NCBI GenBank assembly: GCA_039803745.1
Contig: JBDRZD010000026.1
Coordinates: 1 to 26,462, forward strand
DNA from: a candidate division WOR-3 bacterium
GTDB taxonomy: Bacteria; Hydrothermota; Hydrothermia; Hydrothermales; Hydrothermaceae
Direction: 5' to 3'
DNA: 26,462 bases
Shown here: positions 1 through 15,000 of the stretch, one piece after another
How positions within the stretch are numbered: position 1 is the first letter of the stretch
How the letters are laid out: the number at the start of each line of letters is the position of its first letter
Made by a program: the position numbers

Positions 1-3000
1 TTTTAAAAAATTAAGAATTTTATCTTTATACTTTTCTGGCTCTTTATAAATCTCTTTTTCTTTTTTATTTATAATATTTTCAATTTCATCAATTAAATTT
101 CTCAAAATTTTTCTTTTTTCAAGAAAATCTCTTTCATATTCTTCGTCATGGCATTCATTACAAAAATTTTCTTCTGGCTTTTTTATACTTTCTTTCTTTT
201 TATGGCAATCAAGACAACTTACCTCTGCTTCCTTCATAACATCAGGGGAAAAATCTTTAAATTTCCCATTATATATTTCATATTGGATTTTATGGCAGTT
301 TTCACAATTTTGAATTTTTTTATGATGGCAGGAATTGCATTCATATGAATTTTTATAAGTTAGACCGTGAATTTTCTTTGAATGGCAATCCTCACAGGAA
401 TTTATAAGAAGATGGGAATAGTGATTAAAGGTTTTATTTTTAACATTTACTTCCTGATGTTCTATACCAAAATGGCAGGAAAGACATTCAGGATCTTTTT
501 CAAAAAGCCTTTCAAGGGAAATTTTTTTTATATTTGAATCAAAAAATTTTCTTTCACCCTTTTCTAATTCTTCTTCAATTCTGTTTAAAATTAAATGGGC
601 ATATTTTATATTATGCAAGCCATTACTTTTGTCACTTTTAATAAATTCAAAATTCTGTTTTATTAAATCTGTATTTAAAGGAAGATTCAGGATATCTGAA
701 ATTTTAATAATTCTTTCTACCCTTTCATCCATCCTTTTAACTCTGTCCCTTATCCCTTTCTGCCAGATTACTGCAAGTTTATCATAACCTTTTCCATGGC
801 AATCATTACAAACCTGTGGGGTTGAAATGGTAAATATAGACTTATGTCCAAAAACCAATTTCTCCTCTTTAATCTGATGACAACCTATACATGAAACACC
901 TGATAAAAACATTGGGTCAGGAGTTACTGGCACATCTATTGCTCCTACACCTATATAAAGTCTTTCTTGAAGTGTATGTTTTCCACCATGGCATTCCTCG
1001 CATTTTGGAGAAAGGGCATAAGCCATTTCAATTTTTTTGTGTTTTATTTCACTATGACACCATTCACATTTTATCTTCTCTTTTGTTACATGCACATTAT
1101 GTAAGAATATGTGGTCTTTATATCCTATCTCTCTTTCAACATGGCATTGAGAACACTTCTCTTGAACAACTTCGCCTCTTCCTTCTGTTACATAAATATG
1201 GCATGTCCTGCACCCAATCTTTGCCTCTTCATATTTTGTATGGGAAAATTTAATACCCCTTACAAGGATAACCTCCTTTGGTGGACCATGACAACCCTCA
1301 CATCCTGCAACAGGTTCACTTGCCTCTTTACCTATAAAATGGCATATTATACATACATCTTTATTTACAGCAGTATGTTCTCCCTGAACAAGTTCTGAAT
1401 GGCAGGATTGACATGCAAGATTTACTCCCCTTATTTCTTTATCATAGTGTTTAACATGCTTGAATTTTATTCTTTTTGCAAATAAAACTTCACCTATTTC
1501 AAGTTCCTCTTTAACATGACATTTTTTACAATTTTTATCATCTATTTTTGAATGAAGCCTTACATGATACACTCCTGCAAAATATCTTATCATCTCAGCA
1601 AGCAATCTAAACTTACCTTCCATGTAACCGAAAAATCCTTTTCTATAATGACAATCTATACAATTAACATTGTTGTGGCTTGAAGAAAGCCAGTTTTCAT
1701 AATAGGATTTCATTATATGACAGGAATTACAGAAAGATGGGTTATCTGAAACTCTTATAAAAAGATAAAAGAAATACAAAATTAAAATAGTTAGTATTGG
1801 AAAAATTATTTTCTTTTTCATTCTTTTTTATTTTCCCTTTCCTTCATTATCTTCTCATATTCAAGTGGATGCTCTTTAATCATCCTTTCCTTACTTATTT
1901 TACCTGTGAAAATTGTCGGATTAAATGGAAAAACTTCTGGATTGAAATGGGCATTATACCAGTGCCATATTATTATTGCAAGGGTTGCAAGAAGTGCTTC
2001 ATCAGAATGTGCTTCCCTTGCTATATCAAGAAAAAATTTTGGAATAATTCCAAGAAAAAAATTATGTAACCACATAAGTGTTCCTGATACAATCATTATA
2101 ACCATTCCCCAGTAAACTGCCCAATAATCAAATTTTTCTATATAAGAATACCTTCCAAATTTCGGCTTTTCCTTTGTAAGACCCAAAAAATATTTTATAT
2201 TTTGAAAAAAATCAAGAAAATCTTTTTTCCTTGGCAAAAGTTCTTTAAATTCTCTTCTTCCTTCTTTTGTAAAAAGATATATTGTATGCCATATTGCAAC
2301 TAAAATTAAAAGTGCTGCACCAATTCTATGTAAAATTCTTGATACCTGTATCCCACCTGTTATTTTAAAATAAATTTCTGCCCATCCTGTTTCGTGAAAT
2401 TTTATTGGTAAACCTGTTATTATTAAAATTAAACAACCTAATGCAAGGATAAAGTGCTGTAATCTAACATTTAAACTGAATCTTATGAAATATTCCTCTT
2501 CCTCTTTCTTTATTTTTTCTCTTTCTTTTTTAATTCTCTTAATTTCCTTTTCTATCTCTTTTCTATACCTTTCTTTGATTTCCTCCTTTATTCTTTTTTT
2601 TATCTCTTCCTTTAATTCAATTCCATCCTTTTCAATTTCTTTTATTATTTCTTCATAAATTTTTTCTTCTTCTTTCATTTTTTAAACTTTCTTATACCTC
2701 TTCCTGTCAAATCAAGAATTATATGAACAATGAGGCCAAAAATCACAAGAAATGTAAACCATTTAAAAAAGTTATAAACATAATAAACAATGCCTGCCTC
2801 TTTTTCTTCAGGAATTATGTGATATTTTCCCTTTGCAACATTTTGAGAAGCACCGGGATGACATTTACCACATGTTGCTGCAAGATTTTTTGGATGAATT
2901 GGTGATTTTGGGTCAGTAGAGGGAAGGATATCATGATATCCATGGCAGGAAACACAATTTGCTGCTTTAACAACACCATATTCAAGTGCAATCCCGTGAA

Positions 3001-12000: not shown

Positions 12001-15000
12001 CTTCTATTTCTATATCAGGATGGAATGGTGAAGATATAAAAACTTTAATTTCCTTTTTGGAATAATTTTTAAGTTCTTTTACAACCTCTTCAGAATACCA
12101 TCCATCCCCTCCTAAAAATATGGGTGTAAAATTTTCGCCTATACATTTTTTAACAAAAAAAATTGCTTCCTCCGCATAAAGGGGTGCAAATATTCCGGAA
12201 GGATTAACCTTTTTTAAATAAGAAATTTTTGAAATAATATTCTCCCTATCAAATTCTTCAACTGCTAATATTTTTCCACCCATTTCTTGAATAGATTTTT
12301 TAAACTCTTCAAAAAGTACTTTTGAATAAGGCTCATCCTTTTTATATATTATTGCAAATTTATCAATTCCATAATATTCTATTGCAAATTTTGCAATAGC
12401 CTTTGCTTGATCTATATCAGAATAGGTCATACTATGGATATAATTTTTGTCCTTTGTAATAAAAGGAGAAGTTGCTGTAGGCGTTAGGAGTGGAATTTTA
12501 TTTTCTTCACATAAAGAAGAAGCATATAGGGCAAATTTTGAAATAAGTGGACCTATAATACATAAAAAATTTTCATCCTTTAAAATTTCCTCAATTTTTA
12601 TTTTTAAATTTTCTGAATCGGATTTAAAATCAAATATTTCAATTTCAAAGGGGAGTTTTAAATTATTTTTCTTAAAAAAATCAACTCCTAAAAGAGCCTC
12701 ATTTGCGTAATTGGAATATTTACCTGTTAATTCAAAAAGAATTGCAACTTTTAATTCCCTCTTTTCCTTACATAAAAGAAAGAGAAAAAAAAATATTAAA
12801 AATTTCCTCATTCAGGTGTCATTGTGAGCACATATTTAAAACCTTCTGGTGAAACTTCTAATATAAAAACATCCCTTAAAGGGTCTTTACCTCTTTTAAA
12901 AGAAATATTTCCTGTTACACCTTGATAATCTATCTCTTTTAAATTTTTTAAAAATTCCATCCTTTCGGGTTTTTCCATCTTTTTAAGTACTTCATAAACT
13001 ATTCCAAGAGCATCATAACAAAGGGCGGATGTAAATTCAGGCTCACTTTTATATTTTTCCTTATATTTCCTGATAAATTCTTTTGTCTTTTCATAGGGCA
13101 AAAAGGGAGTAAAGGGTGAGGAAATGTATGCTTTTACATTTTCAAATATATCTTTATTTTTGCTTATAAGTTCATAGGAATACCATCCATCCCCTCCAAC
13201 AAAAACAGGATTAAATTTTACTTCAAGACACTCTTTTAAAATAAGAGGAACAAAATTCGCATATACTGGAAGAAATAGAACCTCTGGATTGAAAGAACTT
13301 ATCTTATCTATTTTTGAATAAAATATTGTATCATTTTCAAAGAAGTATTCAGATGTAAGAATTTCTCCTCCAAAATTTTTAAAGGAAATTTCAAAATTTC
13401 TTGATAAAACTTCTGAATATGGGTCATTTGCTTCATATAAAATGGCAACCTTTGTTTTTTTAAGTTCTTTATAAATAAATTTTGCAAGAAGACATCCCTG
13501 GATTGAATCAGTAAAAGTTGTTCTGAATACAAAATCACTCATTTTTGTAACAAGTGGATGGGTGGCAGTTGGTGAGATTAAAGGTAAGAAATATTTTTGC
13601 GAAATTGATGCAGCAACAAAAACATTTTTTGAAACAAGAGGACCTACAACGCACAAAACTTCTTTATCCTCTGCTAAAGCGTTTATTAATTCCTTTGTTT
13701 TTGCTGGCAAACCCTTGTTATCTTTTATTAGAATTACAAGATTTCTTCCAAAAAATTTTTCACCCTTTTTTTCTTCAAGAAATATGTTTATTCCATTCAA
13801 AGCATTTTTTCCATAAATTGAAGCAGGACCTTCAAGAGGAATTACAACACCAATCTTAATACTTGGTGCCTTGCATGAAAGAAAAATCAGAAAAATAAAT
13901 ACTATTAATTTTTTCATAATTGTTTTATTATATTAAAAATTATTCTTTGTTTTTATTTTTCTTTTGGAACTGGATGCTTTATTTTCTCATAAAATTCTTC
14001 AAACTTGAATTCCTTATATGTGGGGCTATTTTCATTATGGCACTCTATGCAATTCTTTTCTGTAGGTCTTATAAGACCATAATCTTCTGGTTTTGCCTCA
14101 CCACTATAAATTTTCTTCATTACACTCATTGCCTTATATTCAGAACCCGGTCCATGACAATCTTCACAACCTATTCCATTTTCATTATCCTTTCCATTAT
14201 GGCAAGAAAGACATTTTTCAGATTTCTGTGGATCTTCTATTCCCATTTTCTTTGCAATTTCTTTTGATTTTTCAGATGCGAGAGTTTCAAATGCCTTTGA
14301 ATGGTTTGATTTTTCCCATATTTCCCATTGGCTTCCCTTCTTTTCACCCTTGTGGCATACTTTACATTTTTCAGACCCTACATACTCAAACTTCTTTTCC
14401 TCTTTTTTCTCCTGTGCCATACAGAATGTTATTCCTATTACAAGTATAAGTAATTTTTTCATATAACCTCCTTTTTAAAAACAAAAAAATTTTAAAGTTT
14501 TTAAAAATAAAAAGTCAAACAATCTATTTTTTATGATTAAAAAAATTCTAACTGGATAATAAAGAAAAAAAAGGGGCTCGGGAAGTAAAATAAAATTCAA
14601 AACATTTTCATCAGGATTTAAAAGGGAAAGTGTATGATATATTTTCTGAGGGAATGACTCAATAAAAATTAATGGTAACAAATCCTTTTTAAATCCGTAA
14701 GCCTCTTTTTCTTTTAAAACAAAATCTTTTAAAAAAATTGGTAAATTTTTGAATTTTAAAAAACTTGGTAAATCCGTTTCAAAAATAAAATTTGATAAAG
14801 TTAAACTAAGTTTTACAATTTTTAAAATGTGAAGTATTTTAGAAATTTCATAAACTTTATAAAAATCAATCTCTTTTTTAAATTTCAAAATGAATTTATG
14901 AATATCAAAAAGAAATTTTAAAAGACTGTATTTATGTAAAAATGAATGGATTGAAAGAAGAATTATTTCCCACTCCTTTGAAAAGATATAAATTTTTAAA

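Follow-up and report, generated by a model that had tools for sequence, protein, structure and literature searches.

We propose, with an even chance of being right, that a densely packed operon of cytochrome genes encodes that half of an anaerobic respiratory chain which sits in the inner membrane and faces the periplasm, and whose final acceptors are those accessible from the periplasm. The half that runs from quinol to periplasm is well supported by gene content, motifs, topology, conservation and synteny, from which the individual electron-transfer steps are predicted.

Organization of the operon

The window analysed here, a stretch of 26,462 nucleotides, carries fifteen minus-strand genes spanning positions 1-14462, with 4-nt overlaps at 10 of the 14 gene junctions; the operon is cut at the contig end. 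Seven of the ORFs encode c-type cytochromes with 18, 9, 9, 17, 9, 4 and 4 CxxCH sites; the sum of 70 agrees with the genome-wide survey's note, and a single CxxxCH motif comes in addition. Only nine ORFs in the entire 1.67-Mb genome contain at least two CxxCH sites, and since seven of these lie in the operon, the clustering of haem sites is not due to chance. The remaining two are those that the survey had placed elsewhere, an ORF with 15 sites fused to a cytochrome b (C64:1-2091) and one with 8 sites on contig C52. The cytochrome genes are interleaved, as had been described, with two cytochromes b, a Rieske/cytochrome b pair and an NrfD/4Fe-4S pair, to which two Peripla_BP_6 genes must be added. 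The genes are as follows (TM, transmembrane helix; L and G numbers denote loci and genomes of relatives):

1..1821, minus strand: A, 18-haem cytochrome with an NrfH/NapC-type head (CxxCHxM); 18 CxxCH; PF03264 at 32.4 bits (cut-off 24.1); N-terminal TM at 3-25; about 28 C-terminal aa lost at the contig end; 69% identity to the 635-aa L001 orthologue
1818..2678, minus strand: B, FdnI/HydC-type cytochrome b (Ni_hydr_CYTB); PF01292 at 55.7 bits; TIGR01583 at 61 bits, under cut-off; Lys/Glu-rich N-terminal extension of about 60 aa; 39-40% identity to the C-terminal domain in the C64 and L001 fusions
2675..3703, minus strand: C, 9-haem periplasmic cytochrome with signal peptide; 9 CxxCH; single C-terminal TM at 311-334; 34-39% identity to the c-domain in the 16-haem/cytochrome b fusion
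3700..4380, minus strand: D, second FdnI/HydC-type cytochrome b; PF01292 at 67.5 bits; four TM-like segments; 41% identity to B
4377..5354, minus strand: E, second 9-haem cytochrome, partner of D; 9 CxxCH; C-terminal TM; 35% identity to C; start likely the ATG at 5321
5248..6930, minus strand: F, 18-haem NrfH-headed cytochrome (17 CxxCH and 1 CxxxCH); PF03264 above cut-off; widespread family of about 560-600 aa
6927..8072, minus strand: G, 9-haem cytochrome in the cytochrome c1/f position of a Rieske/cytochrome b module; 9 CxxCH; C-terminal TM at 357-379; adjoins Rieske/cytochrome b also in L001 and L003-L006
8069..8986, minus strand: H, cytochrome b with b6 and subunit IV in a single chain; PF00033 at 78.6 bits; alignment to b6 1vf5_A
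8973..9392, minus strand: I, Rieske [2Fe-2S] protein; PF00355 at 44.4 bits; RRxF Tat motif; CTHxxC...CPCH ligands intact
9389..10570, minus strand: J, NrfD-family integral membrane quinone-interacting subunit; PF03916 at 127 bits; eight TM-like segments
10576..11307, minus strand: K, NrfC/DsrO/TtrB-type periplasmic protein with four [4Fe-4S] clusters; Fer4_11 at 86.5 bits; DsrO at 181 and TtrB at 198 bits, both under cut-off; RRxF Tat motif; 16 Cys
11304..11774, minus strand: L, tetrahaem cytochrome, likely the electron outlet of J/K; 4 CxxCH; N-terminal membrane anchor (TM at 13-32)
11771..12811, minus strand: M, Peripla_BP_6 (LivK-like) with lipoprotein-like N-terminus; PF13458 at 85 bits; in the operon also in L001 and G041
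12808..13917, minus strand: N, second Peripla_BP_6 with lipoprotein-like N-terminus; PF13458 at 142 bits; one copy also beside a c554-like 5-haem gene in G048
13953..14462, minus strand: O, small soluble c554-like tetrahaem cytochrome; 4 CxxCH; signal peptide; PF13435 at 43.7 bits; PDB c554 1bvb at E 7e-5, OmcE 7tfs at E 0.007

The entire operon is colinear in L001 and G041, where the 18-haem protein (635-643 aa) is directly followed by a fusion of a 16-haem cytochrome with a cytochrome b (716-717 aa), which shares 74-82% identity with the C64 protein. Judging from this gene order, the operon, whose first gene the survey had recorded as truncated, continues past the contig end into C64. The QmoC-like, HdrA and MvhD/G/A genes lie downstream on the same strand in G041 and are found here on C64 and then C76; going by the relatives, the operon runs on beyond the fusion into QmoC-HdrA-Mvh hydrogenase genes. 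Operon and fusion together give a membrane-anchored set of about 85 c-type haems. Inner-membrane anchors are present in A, C, E, F, G, L and the C64 protein, and O, the sole operon cytochrome without one, is a candidate periplasmic shuttle. Because LptE is encoded in the window, an LPS outer membrane is implied. The source organism comes from a hot spring and belongs to WOR-3, a phylum that has received little study.

Quinol-interacting modules

Two modules are conserved among relatives, one of Rieske protein, cytochrome b, 9-haem and 18-haem cytochromes, and another of 9-haem cytochrome, FdnI-type cytochrome b and 18-haem cytochrome. Of 9 related loci outside the phylum, 4 repeat the order I-H-G-F, and L006 has the module with other spacing; the C-B-A module stands alone in G087 and G088. 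The C64, L001 and G041 fusions are Rosetta-stone proteins in which a 9-haem-type c-domain, a TM helix and an FdnI-type cytochrome b form a single chain, and C and B are a split CbcL-like pair. CbcL and CbcBA are inner-membrane quinol oxidases of extracellular electron transfer in Geobacter sulfurreducens (10.1101/2023.05.03.539133). Set beside the definitions in that paper, C/B and E/D share with CbcL the succession of a periplasmic c-domain with 9 haems and a membrane-bound, dihaem-type cytochrome b of HydC/FdnI character, and with CbcBA a c-subunit with one C-terminal TM helix and a separate gene for the 4-helix b-subunit. By the same definitions, CbcL is fused whereas both pairs here are split, CbcA has 7 haems rather than 9, and the C64 paralogue is fused as in CbcL but carries 16 haems; the two conserved modules, unlike CbcL and CbcBA, each also travel with an 18-haem NrfH-headed protein. 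The survey's CbcL-like assignment holds for domain content, with the reservation that the genes are split.

The 18-haem proteins A and F resemble the NapC/NirT/NrfH proteins (NrfH 2j7a/2vr0, CymA, ImcH) in having one N-terminal TM helix, PF03264 matches above cut-off and a first haem motif, CxxCHxM, that is the NrfH signature, with M42 invariant in 60 sequences. They had been called ImcH-like, a label we reject on two features: ImcH has three TM helices and 7 haems, A and F one helix and 18 haems, against 4 haems in NrfH and CymA. A and F belong instead to a widespread 18-haem NrfH-headed family. In F, residues 14-80 align to NrfH 2j7a_C, and the CxxxCH site falls at residue 35, where the family consensus is CxxCH. 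Unlike in NrfH-type proteins, an OcwA/NrfA-like core that contains a three-helix bundle lies in the remainder of the chain (AF2 pLDDT 72): among solved structures, the middle of F is closest to OcwA, a nonahaem cytochrome from the outer cell wall of Thermincola potens (PDB 6i5b; residues 214-412, 27% identity over about 200 residues, E 3e-10). OcwA is, however, a surface protein of a monoderm, whereas F is twice its size and has its anchor in the inner membrane of a diderm. The MtrC/MtrF domain matches noted in the survey do exist but, being generic haem-packing matches on inner-membrane proteins, are no evidence of outer-membrane cytochromes.

The Rieske module was described as bc-type. In common with bc1, b6f and menaquinol:cytochrome c reductases, it has an intact Tat-motif Rieske protein, the b6 and subunit IV fold, the bL histidines and, encoded beside cytochrome b, a C-terminally anchored c-type cytochrome (G). 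Unlike in those enzymes, both bH ligands of H are replaced (Glu79 and Ile179 in alignments including 150 representatives), an N-terminal segment of about 55 aa is gone and LPLF replaces PEWY; the nearest members of the H clade have Arg at the helix-B bH ligand position. Without a bH site, Qi segment or PEWY, H is unlikely to support a Q cycle, and both electrons would pass to c-haems; with LPLF in this position, the Qo site itself may be non-functional. The partners of H/I also differ from those of bc1/b6f, being 9-haem and 18-haem cytochromes in a genome that has no cytochrome c oxidase.

Search for an outer-membrane conduit

The survey read the operon as a menaquinol-to-outside conduit. The quinol-interacting modules and the periplasmic c-haem chains they would feed are present; the outer-membrane exit is not. 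Eight of the genome's nine multihaem proteins have an inner-membrane anchor, the ninth being the small soluble tetrahaem protein, and neither this genome nor any of four genomes of its genus yielded an outer-membrane conduit, in keeping with the survey's own remark that no porin-cytochrome partner had been identified. MtrB/PioB was found in 0 of 11 genomes of the order, and no Cyc2-like protein was detected. A Geobacter-type porin-cytochrome cluster combines a periplasmic multihaem cytochrome, a porin-like protein and an outer-membrane lipoprotein cytochrome. Clusters in G041 and G048 resemble this arrangement, with a 6-haem lipoprotein, an 11/12-haem cytochrome and a secreted beta-rich protein of 359-408 aa without assigned family, whose extreme beta-strand alternation (at least the 99th percentile) makes it a candidate barrel only. 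Such porin-cytochrome-like clusters accompany the operon in the sister genus (G041) and in three f2 genomes, but the present genome and its genus carry none: tblastn revealed no orthologue here of any conduit protein of the sister-genus cluster, and the 11-haem protein is missing from all four genomes of the genus. The genes flanking the G041 cluster exist here without it, one pair being adjacent on C4 and the other flank lying on C55 followed by other genes; the cluster is cleanly absent at the syntenic site.

Other respiratory genes

CcmC, CcmE and CcmF are present and haem-copper oxidase (COX1) is absent from the genome, leaving a bd oxidase as the only oxidase, as the survey had reported on both counts. 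Searches for MqnA/D and MenD were likewise negative, and no quinone head-group pathway was found in the genome. The operon contains no dedicated periplasmic terminal reductase, and the only molybdoenzymes of the genome are cytoplasmic FdhA and NuoG. Among NCBIfam models, the C52 octahaem protein (400 aa) best matches HAO-family hydrazine dehydrogenase (88 bits, under cut-off).

Alternative readings

That a complete quinol-to-outside conduit exists here, for mineral, electrode or interspecies electron transfer, with an exit component unrecognised or unassembled, we consider doubtful, though it is the strongest of the alternatives. In haem load and in its CbcL/CbcBA/NrfH-like set of modules, the operon matches what Geobacter is described as having at the inner membrane (10.1101/2023.05.03.539133), the middle of F is related to a cell-surface reductase, O is weakly similar to the nanowire cytochrome OmcE, and relatives possess the clusters described above. 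Moreover, the assembly is 93.5% complete in 100 contigs, leaving 6.5% unassembled, conduits of an unrecognised type would escape our searches, and about 85 haems are far above the seeming need of a soluble acceptor; these points count against the preferred, periplasmic reading, as do the lack of a terminal reductase in the operon, the negative search for a quinone head-group pathway, the possibly non-functional Qo site of H and the pairing of the operon with porin-cytochrome-like clusters in relatives. Set against a complete conduit are the empty syntenic site, the negative profile and orthologue searches across genus and order, the inner-membrane anchoring of all large cytochromes, and a genome without any further multihaem ORF. 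In addition, the only cultured WOR-3 strain, which represents a distant lineage with 60.6% GC, does not reduce ferric citrate and does not reduce ferrihydrite either (PMC12285271).

N-oxide chemistry would use the same heads differently: quinol would pass electrons through the NapC/NrfH-type heads of A and F and c554-like O to the HAO-like protein, which would reduce nitrite, hydroxylamine or NO, in effect the nitrifier HAO-c554-cM552 chain in reverse. The HAO-like gene is, however, unlinked, sitting among ZIP and P-type ATPase metal transporters, the relatives examined keep the operon with no HAO gene linked to it, and such a chain needs about 16 haems rather than about 85, making this reading improbable. 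Marginally less probable still is inward flow, in which periplasmic cytochromes would take up electrons, whether supplied by Fe(II), reduced sulfur, a cathode or a partner, and deliver them to the quinone pool, and from there to bd oxidase or, for H2 or ferredoxin, to QmoC-HdrA-Mvh. In principle, Rieske/cytochrome b and FdnI-type modules can work in either direction, bd is the sole oxidase, and HdrA-Mvh-QmoC adjoins the operon; but with most donors the transfer of electrons from cytochromes c to a quinone runs uphill, and neither a Cyc2-like or MtoAB-like iron oxidase nor an outer-membrane entry route was found.

Proposed model

The data presented above have led us to favour a periplasm-facing hub. 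The quinone pool would be reduced by H2 (through the Mvh-HdrA-QmoC genes directly downstream), formate or NADH, and quinol would be oxidised at several distinct membrane modules, loading the c-haems on the outer face of the inner membrane: H/I, a Rieske protein with a putative single-haem cytochrome b, together with G and F; C and B together with A; the second pair E/D; the fused C64 protein; and J/K/L, an NrfD/NrfC unit with an anchored tetrahaem. From these periplasmic-side sites electrons would move through the haem chains and O onward. Because no outer-membrane conduit was found in genome or genus, the last step is placed in the periplasm, with acceptors able to reach it, such as chelated or colloidal Fe(III), polysulfide/S0 or quinone-type shuttles, or alternatively N-oxides through the HAO-like protein.

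The literature searched yielded no account of WOR-3 bacteria with multihaem cytochromes or with extracellular electron transfer. The survey's claim of extracellular respiration, the "to outside" half, is unsupported in this genome yet plausible for the order. The same hub probably delivers its electrons to porin-cytochrome complexes in sister lineages, and export across the outer membrane may have been the ancestral job of the operon.

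Content and extent of the operon

The AT-rich window (G+C ~29%) begins with 15 minus-strand ORFs, here called A to O. Features used below are:

1..14462, minus strand: operon A-O
1..1821, minus strand: A, 18-haem protein with an NrfH-type head
1818-2678, minus strand: B, FdnI-type cytochrome b
11771-13917, minus strand: M and N, two LivK-type binding proteins
13953..14462, minus strand: O, small tetrahaem cytochrome
14475-16776: peptide-modification-like gene set
19362-21641: 759-aa protein

Translation and motif counting found 18, 9, 9, 17, 9, 4 and 4 CxxCH sites in seven of the ORFs (A, C, E, F, G, L and O), bearing out the 70 haem sites in seven cytochromes of the genome-wide survey's note. 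The 17-site protein, F, has in addition a CxxxCH at residue 35, where its family consensus is CxxCH. The other subunits recognized by Pfam and NCBIfam are two Ni_hydr_CYTB/FdnI-type cytochromes b (B and D), a Cytochrome_B/Rieske pair (H and I), NrfD (J) and a four-cluster ferredoxin with a Tat motif (K), along with two Peripla_BP_6 proteins (M and N) absent from the survey's description. The genes are tightly packed, as had been reported, with 4-nt overlaps at 10 of the 14 junctions. Since seven of the nine ORFs with at least two CxxCH in this 1.67-Mb, 100-contig assembly (completeness 93.5%, contamination 0.21%) fall in the operon, their clustering is not due to chance. The others are the two that the survey had placed elsewhere: one at C64:1-2091 (15 sites) and one on contig C52 (8 sites).

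A public relative (L001) contains the whole operon in the same order, with an F protein 84% identical; there, the next gene after the 18-haem protein (635 aa) encodes a 717-aa fusion in which 16 CxxCH sites, a transmembrane helix and an FdnI-type cytochrome b domain share one chain. C64 opens with an ORF that has lost its N-terminus and is 82% identical to this fusion protein. The same 16 genes are found in G041, a 20-contig genome from another genus of the family, followed on the same strand by genes for PlsY, a GT2 glycosyltransferase, a QmoC-like membrane iron-sulfur protein, a double HdrA and MvhD, and ending in an Mvh/Vhu-type NiFe hydrogenase (small and large subunit). In the genome under study (G000) the same downstream series lies on C64 and C76. 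The operon is thus predicted to extend beyond the window into C64; because no exact overlap was found between the ends of the two contigs, the join rests on synteny with L001 and G041. With C64 included, the cluster holds 85 CxxCH and one CxxxCH in the assembly. A near-unchanged operon was detected in 13 sequencing runs from 7 studies, 12 of them labelled as hot-spring metagenomes; no RNA dataset was among those listed.

Topology of the cytochromes and their likeness to known quinol oxidases

Predicted topology of the operon cytochromes
A and F: one N-terminal hydrophobic helix (3-25 in A, 1-32 in F) and an NrfH/NapC head
C, E and G: signal peptide and one C-terminal helix
L: N-terminal anchor
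O: signal peptide only

By these predictions, eight of the nine multihaem proteins of the genome would be either tied to the inner membrane or, in the case of the C52 protein, soluble and unlinked, leaving O, a c554-like tetrahaem protein, as the only cytochrome that could move freely. Proteins A and F share with the NapC/NirT/NrfH family an N-terminal membrane helix, a head that scores above the PF03264 cut-off of 24.1 (32.4 bits for A and 44.4 bits for F) and a CxxCHxM motif at the first haem, which reads CNSCHIM in A and, with one extra residue, CGNICHVM in F. The consensus of the F family at this site is CGSCHVM; its methionine, M42, is invariant and aligns to the CHIM of the quinol-site haem of NrfH. 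Two lysines without variation in the family, K74 and K75, are offset by 2-3 alignment positions from Lys82, the quinol-site lysine of NrfH. The survey spoke of ImcH-like quinol oxidases and cited, for F, 27% identity to Geobacter ImcH over 229 aa. The family label is ruled out by helix and haem number: ImcH of Geobacter has three N-terminal transmembrane helices and seven c-type haem motifs, whereas A and F each have one hydrophobic segment and 18 sites. Thermincola OcwA resembles the central part of F (E 3e-10) and also heads the Foldseek results for an AF2 model of F, itself of moderate quality (pLDDT 72), there at E 1.7e-3, so that no match reached E <= 0.001.

The likeness to CbcL holds at the level of domains. 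The nine-haem periplasmic c-domain of the Geobacter protein is matched by C and E, with 9 CxxCH each, and its dihaem HydC/FdnI-type cytochrome b domain by B, D and the C-terminus of the C64 protein, with PF01292 scores of 55.7 bits in B and 67.5 bits in D and at least four conserved histidines in all three sequences. CbcL, however, unites both domains in one chain, while C/B and E/D are separate genes overlapping by 4 nt, the sole fused paralogue being the C64 protein (16 haems in its full-length relatives). The paralogues among these proteins fall into three sets: A with F (35% identity); the 9-haem proteins C, E and G with the c-domain of the fusion (29-39%); and the cytochromes b B and D with its b-domain (33-41%). 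The fusion serves as a Rosetta stone, and therefore each 9-haem protein would work with the cytochrome b encoded next to it. Cytochrome b B begins with a run of ~60 residues, nearly only Lys, Glu and Ile, on the cytoplasmic side; the run is kept in L001 and has no counterpart in the paralogue D.

In the NrfCD-type module of the survey, J (PF03916, 127 bits) and K (Fer4_11, 86 bits; 16 Cys and an RRDF motif) match the NrfD and Tat-exported 4x[4Fe-4S] subunits common to Nrf, Psr, Ttr, Dsr, Qrc and ACIII, but the molybdopterin or NrfA-type catalytic partner of such systems is absent, its place being taken by the tetrahaem cytochrome L. No periplasmic Psr/Ttr/Arr-type partner was found, the only PF00384 proteins of the genome being the cytoplasmic FdhA and NuoG. 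Finally, Pfam matches to Mtrc-MtrF_II-IV_dom, which the survey had listed and which might be taken as a sign of outer-membrane cytochromes, were rejected as such because they fall on inner-membrane-anchored proteins.

Two conserved modules

The family of F is large and well conserved, with 2750 proteins at E <= 1e-5 among 7999 candidates; full-length identity outside the close relatives is typically 45-50%, and some rows are labelled Acidobacteriota, most carrying no name. The order Rieske, cytochrome b, 9-haem, 18-haem recurs in four of nine related public loci (L001, L003, L004 and L005), two of which (L004 and L005) are from Eisenbacteria; L006, from a planctomycete, has the same parts in another arrangement, and in the remaining four the module neighbours are absent or past the contig end. 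Two genomes from another family of the class (G087 and G088) have only the triple of 9-haem protein, FdnI-type cytochrome b and 18-haem protein. Because I-H-G-F and C-B-A recur in relatives, the 18-haem proteins appear to be subunits of these two modules rather than free-standing ImcH-type oxidases. Of 272 genomes of the phylum, 20 have a match to F at E <= 1e-20, among them 4/4 and 5/6 in the two families of the order and 2/2 and 2/5 in two other families of the class, with weaker partial matches elsewhere. No paper on a Rieske, multiheme and NrfH module or on an octadecahaem protein was evident from the listings of the literature searched.

In the two Eisenbacteria loci, ORFs with 42 CxxCH motifs (L004:1353-4607 and L005:3744-6986) adjoin the Rieske/cytochrome b/9-haem/18-haem module, as do 13-haem proteins with 36-38% identity to C, a 9-haem protein of the window.

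A Rieske/cytochrome b variant

The bc-type module proposed by the survey retains some of the canonical features and lacks others. The ligands of the Rieske protein I are intact (PF00355 match; CTHMKC...CPCHG), as in canonical complexes. In an alignment of H to cytochrome b6 (1vf5_A), the bL ligands, the first histidines of helices B and D (H65 and H164), are kept, but the bH ligand positions are occupied by Glu79 and Ile179; the Qo motif, PEWY in canonical copies, reads LPLF in H and PPWY in L003-L005; and a ~55-residue N-terminal segment found in relatives is missing. The second histidine of helix B is replaced by Leu in L001 and by Arg in G041, G048 (another genome of the order) and Eisenbacteria, while that of helix D is kept in G041 and G048 and lost in the window's genus and L003-L005. 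A profile search with H against 1.84 billion representatives gave 7257 matches at E <= 0.001 (a word-based homologue search gave 12 matches only), and residues were scored in the best 150. From these features we infer that the I-H module cannot run a Q cycle.

Haem-ligand positions in the best 150 profile matches to H
All four His: 126
Arg at the helix-B site: 17, the highest-scoring matches
Phe at the helix-B site: 3
Asn at the helix-B site: 1
Tyr at the helix-B site: 1
Only the helix-D site missing: 1
Partial sequence: 1

Search for an outer-membrane conduit

The survey had read the operon as a menaquinol-to-outside conduit. The organism is, on gene content, a diderm, because LptE is present in the window, and an Mtr/Pcc-type conduit consists of a beta-barrel encoded with periplasmic and surface multihaem cytochromes; none was found in G000 or its genus. 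PF11854 (MtrB/PioB) matched nothing in G000, nor elsewhere in the order (11 genomes), none of the 11 single-CxxCH ORFs of G000 resembles a Cyc2-type fused porin-cytochrome, and the genome has no multihaem ORF beyond the nine.

When five genomes of the order were scanned with Pfam, extra multihaem loci came to light in relatives: (i) in G041 (L033:5938-9905, on C6), a 6-haem lipoprotein, a secreted 408-aa family-less protein and an 11-haem cytochrome; (ii) in G048 (L035:3150-7859, on C27), the same trio with a 359 aa protein and a 12-haem cytochrome; and (iii) also in G048 (L036:6428-11926, on C1), an NHL-repeat protein, 7-, 8- and 9-haem cytochromes, a 525-aa family-less protein and a 4-haem protein. 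The 6-haem lipoproteins carry a collagen-like GPxGPxGP linker after the lipobox, and the G041 cluster adds a 204-aa 'choice-of-anchor V'/Reeler-like protein. The family-less proteins have no transmembrane helix, and by a crude measure of alternating hydrophobicity they rank no lower than the 99th percentile among 637 ORFs of like size from G000. The 408-aa protein falls in unnamed Atlas clusters from Calditrichota, Zixibacteria, Ignavibacteriota and Thermodesulfobacteriota, whose nearest named clusters are outer-membrane barrels at 0.91, a lead only; a word-based homologue search returned 2 matches, and a single-sequence AF2 model, at pLDDT 33.5, was too poor to use. We read these three loci as porin-cytochrome-like clusters with a candidate barrel.

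Matches to the 11-haem protein were obtained in G041, G047, G048 and G049, which makes 4 of the order's 11 genomes, and in none of the four genomes of the window's genus (completeness 93.5, 93, 75 and 67%). The G047 orthologue (C3:1086-1907) has one in-frame TGA, which may be a selenocysteine codon, a sequencing error or the mark of a pseudogene. With 16 proteins of the conduit clusters and their neighbours as queries, tblastn against G000 returned only weak haem-motif matches to the operon and a match at 25% identity between the HAO-like octahaem proteins of the two sides. The genes around the G041 cluster occur in G000 in its absence. Two of them are neighbours on C4, separated by 413 nt, and on C55 the flank is followed by a RecA-like gene, named from its first residues. 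The absence at the syntenic site is therefore not an assembly gap, and the conduit of the survey's note finds no counterpart in G000.

Electron inputs, sinks and neighbouring genes

Candidate inputs are the adjacent QmoC-HdrA-Mvh set, the cytoplasmic FdhA encoded beside an MvhD-like gene on C2, and Complex I, to which NuoG points. The QmoC match spans the whole model at 166 bits, below the cut-off of 300. The downstream same-strand set (C64:3881-7787 and C76:421-3765, L028 and L029; L022:8536-16107 in G041) comprises, besides the QmoC-like, double HdrA and MvhD proteins, both subunits of the Mvh/Vhu-type NiFe hydrogenase, small and large, and a maturation protease. It is unusual to find Hdr, Mvh and Qmo combined at the membrane next to a cytochrome hub, and the combination could be a bifurcating H2:quinone/ferredoxin enzyme.

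Several statements of the survey on the rest of the genome were confirmed. CcmE, CcmF and CcmC for cytochrome c maturation are present; no haem-copper oxidase was found (COX1 is absent), and the bd oxidase that is present takes quinol directly; neither MqnA/D (PF02621) nor MenD (TIGR00173) of the quinone head-group pathways was found in G000. Even so, it encodes many quinone-dependent enzymes (Nuo, bd oxidase, QmoC, NrfD and three kinds of cytochrome b). Periplasmic molybdoenzymes were not found in it.

The two LivK-type proteins inside the operon have lipoprotein-like N-termini and no ABC permease nearby; in G048 a c554-like 5-haem gene adjoins one copy. Their task might be to present a ligand, acceptor or shuttle to the small cytochrome. 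The peptide-modification-like set, 12 nt upstream of O, encodes NTP_transf_5, a family-less 249-aa protein and PqqD; in G041 the operon is preceded by three ORFs of like size and order. The 759-aa protein combines a metalloenzyme/sulfatase-type domain, BNR-like repeats and a weak match to Por_Secre_tail (type IX secretion sorting), and is probably a surface hydrolase.

A proposed quinol-to-periplasm hub

The data presented above lead us to favour, at about even confidence, a hub that would pass electrons from quinol to the periplasm with no outer-membrane conduit of its own. The inner-membrane placement is well supported by predicted domains and topology, gene fusion and conservation; the electron-transfer steps of this hub we infer throughout. 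A complete extracellular pathway, closed by a component unseen here, is rather unlikely: the sister-lineage clusters lend an extracellular step credibility for the order, but the step to the outside is unsupported in the G000 genome itself. N-oxide chemistry would call on the HAO-family octahaem protein (400-aa, C52:5607-6809, L027), which is unlinked to the operon; since its neighbours are a ZIP transporter, two P-type ATPases and a regulator, its context suggests metal handling more than nitrogen metabolism, and we regard this alternative as improbable. Inward electron flow through the same proteins seems about as improbable.

A wider proposal, possible though doubtful, takes in the whole order. 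Because a sister genus and a second family add porin-cytochrome clusters, the operon would supply, in Hydrothermales, the inner-membrane half of a pathway that runs all the way from quinol to the cell surface. At its centre would stand a Rieske/cytochrome b enzyme of an undescribed kind that, without haem bH, Qi site or Q cycle, passes both quinol electrons to an inner-membrane-anchored 27-haem wire; the window's genus, having no porin, would then use a novel outer-membrane route or 18-haem chains that reach periplasmic acceptors.

No report of multihaem cytochromes or extracellular electron transfer in WOR-3 was found in the literature searched, supplements aside. A 2025 study of 181 WOR-3 genomes describes Rnf-based fermenters or oxygen respirers, and the words haem, iron and extracellular do not appear in its main text (PMC12542636); the only isolate, sy37, is described as respiring O2 and S0, and not ferric citrate or ferrihydrite (PMC12285271). 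Elsewhere, in the accessible passages, WOR-3 is mentioned only under conductive pili (PMC7382037), or generic marker genes are reported in 86 of 89 genomes of all phyla, these not being multihaem cytochromes of WOR-3 (PMC10681998). If true, the wider proposal would for the first time make a case in WOR-3 for electron transfer to minerals, electrodes or other species. With its conserved cytochrome hub of ~85 haems, a single thermophilic order would bring to the phylum a third lifestyle, that of anaerobic respiration, and would join the iron or sulfur cycling of hot springs as a new participant. The bH-less Rieske/cytochrome b variant, spread over several uncultured phyla, would be a natural test of a Qo site without a Q cycle, and the contrast between a hub-only genus and one with both hub and porin could separate periplasmic from extracellular electron disposal.
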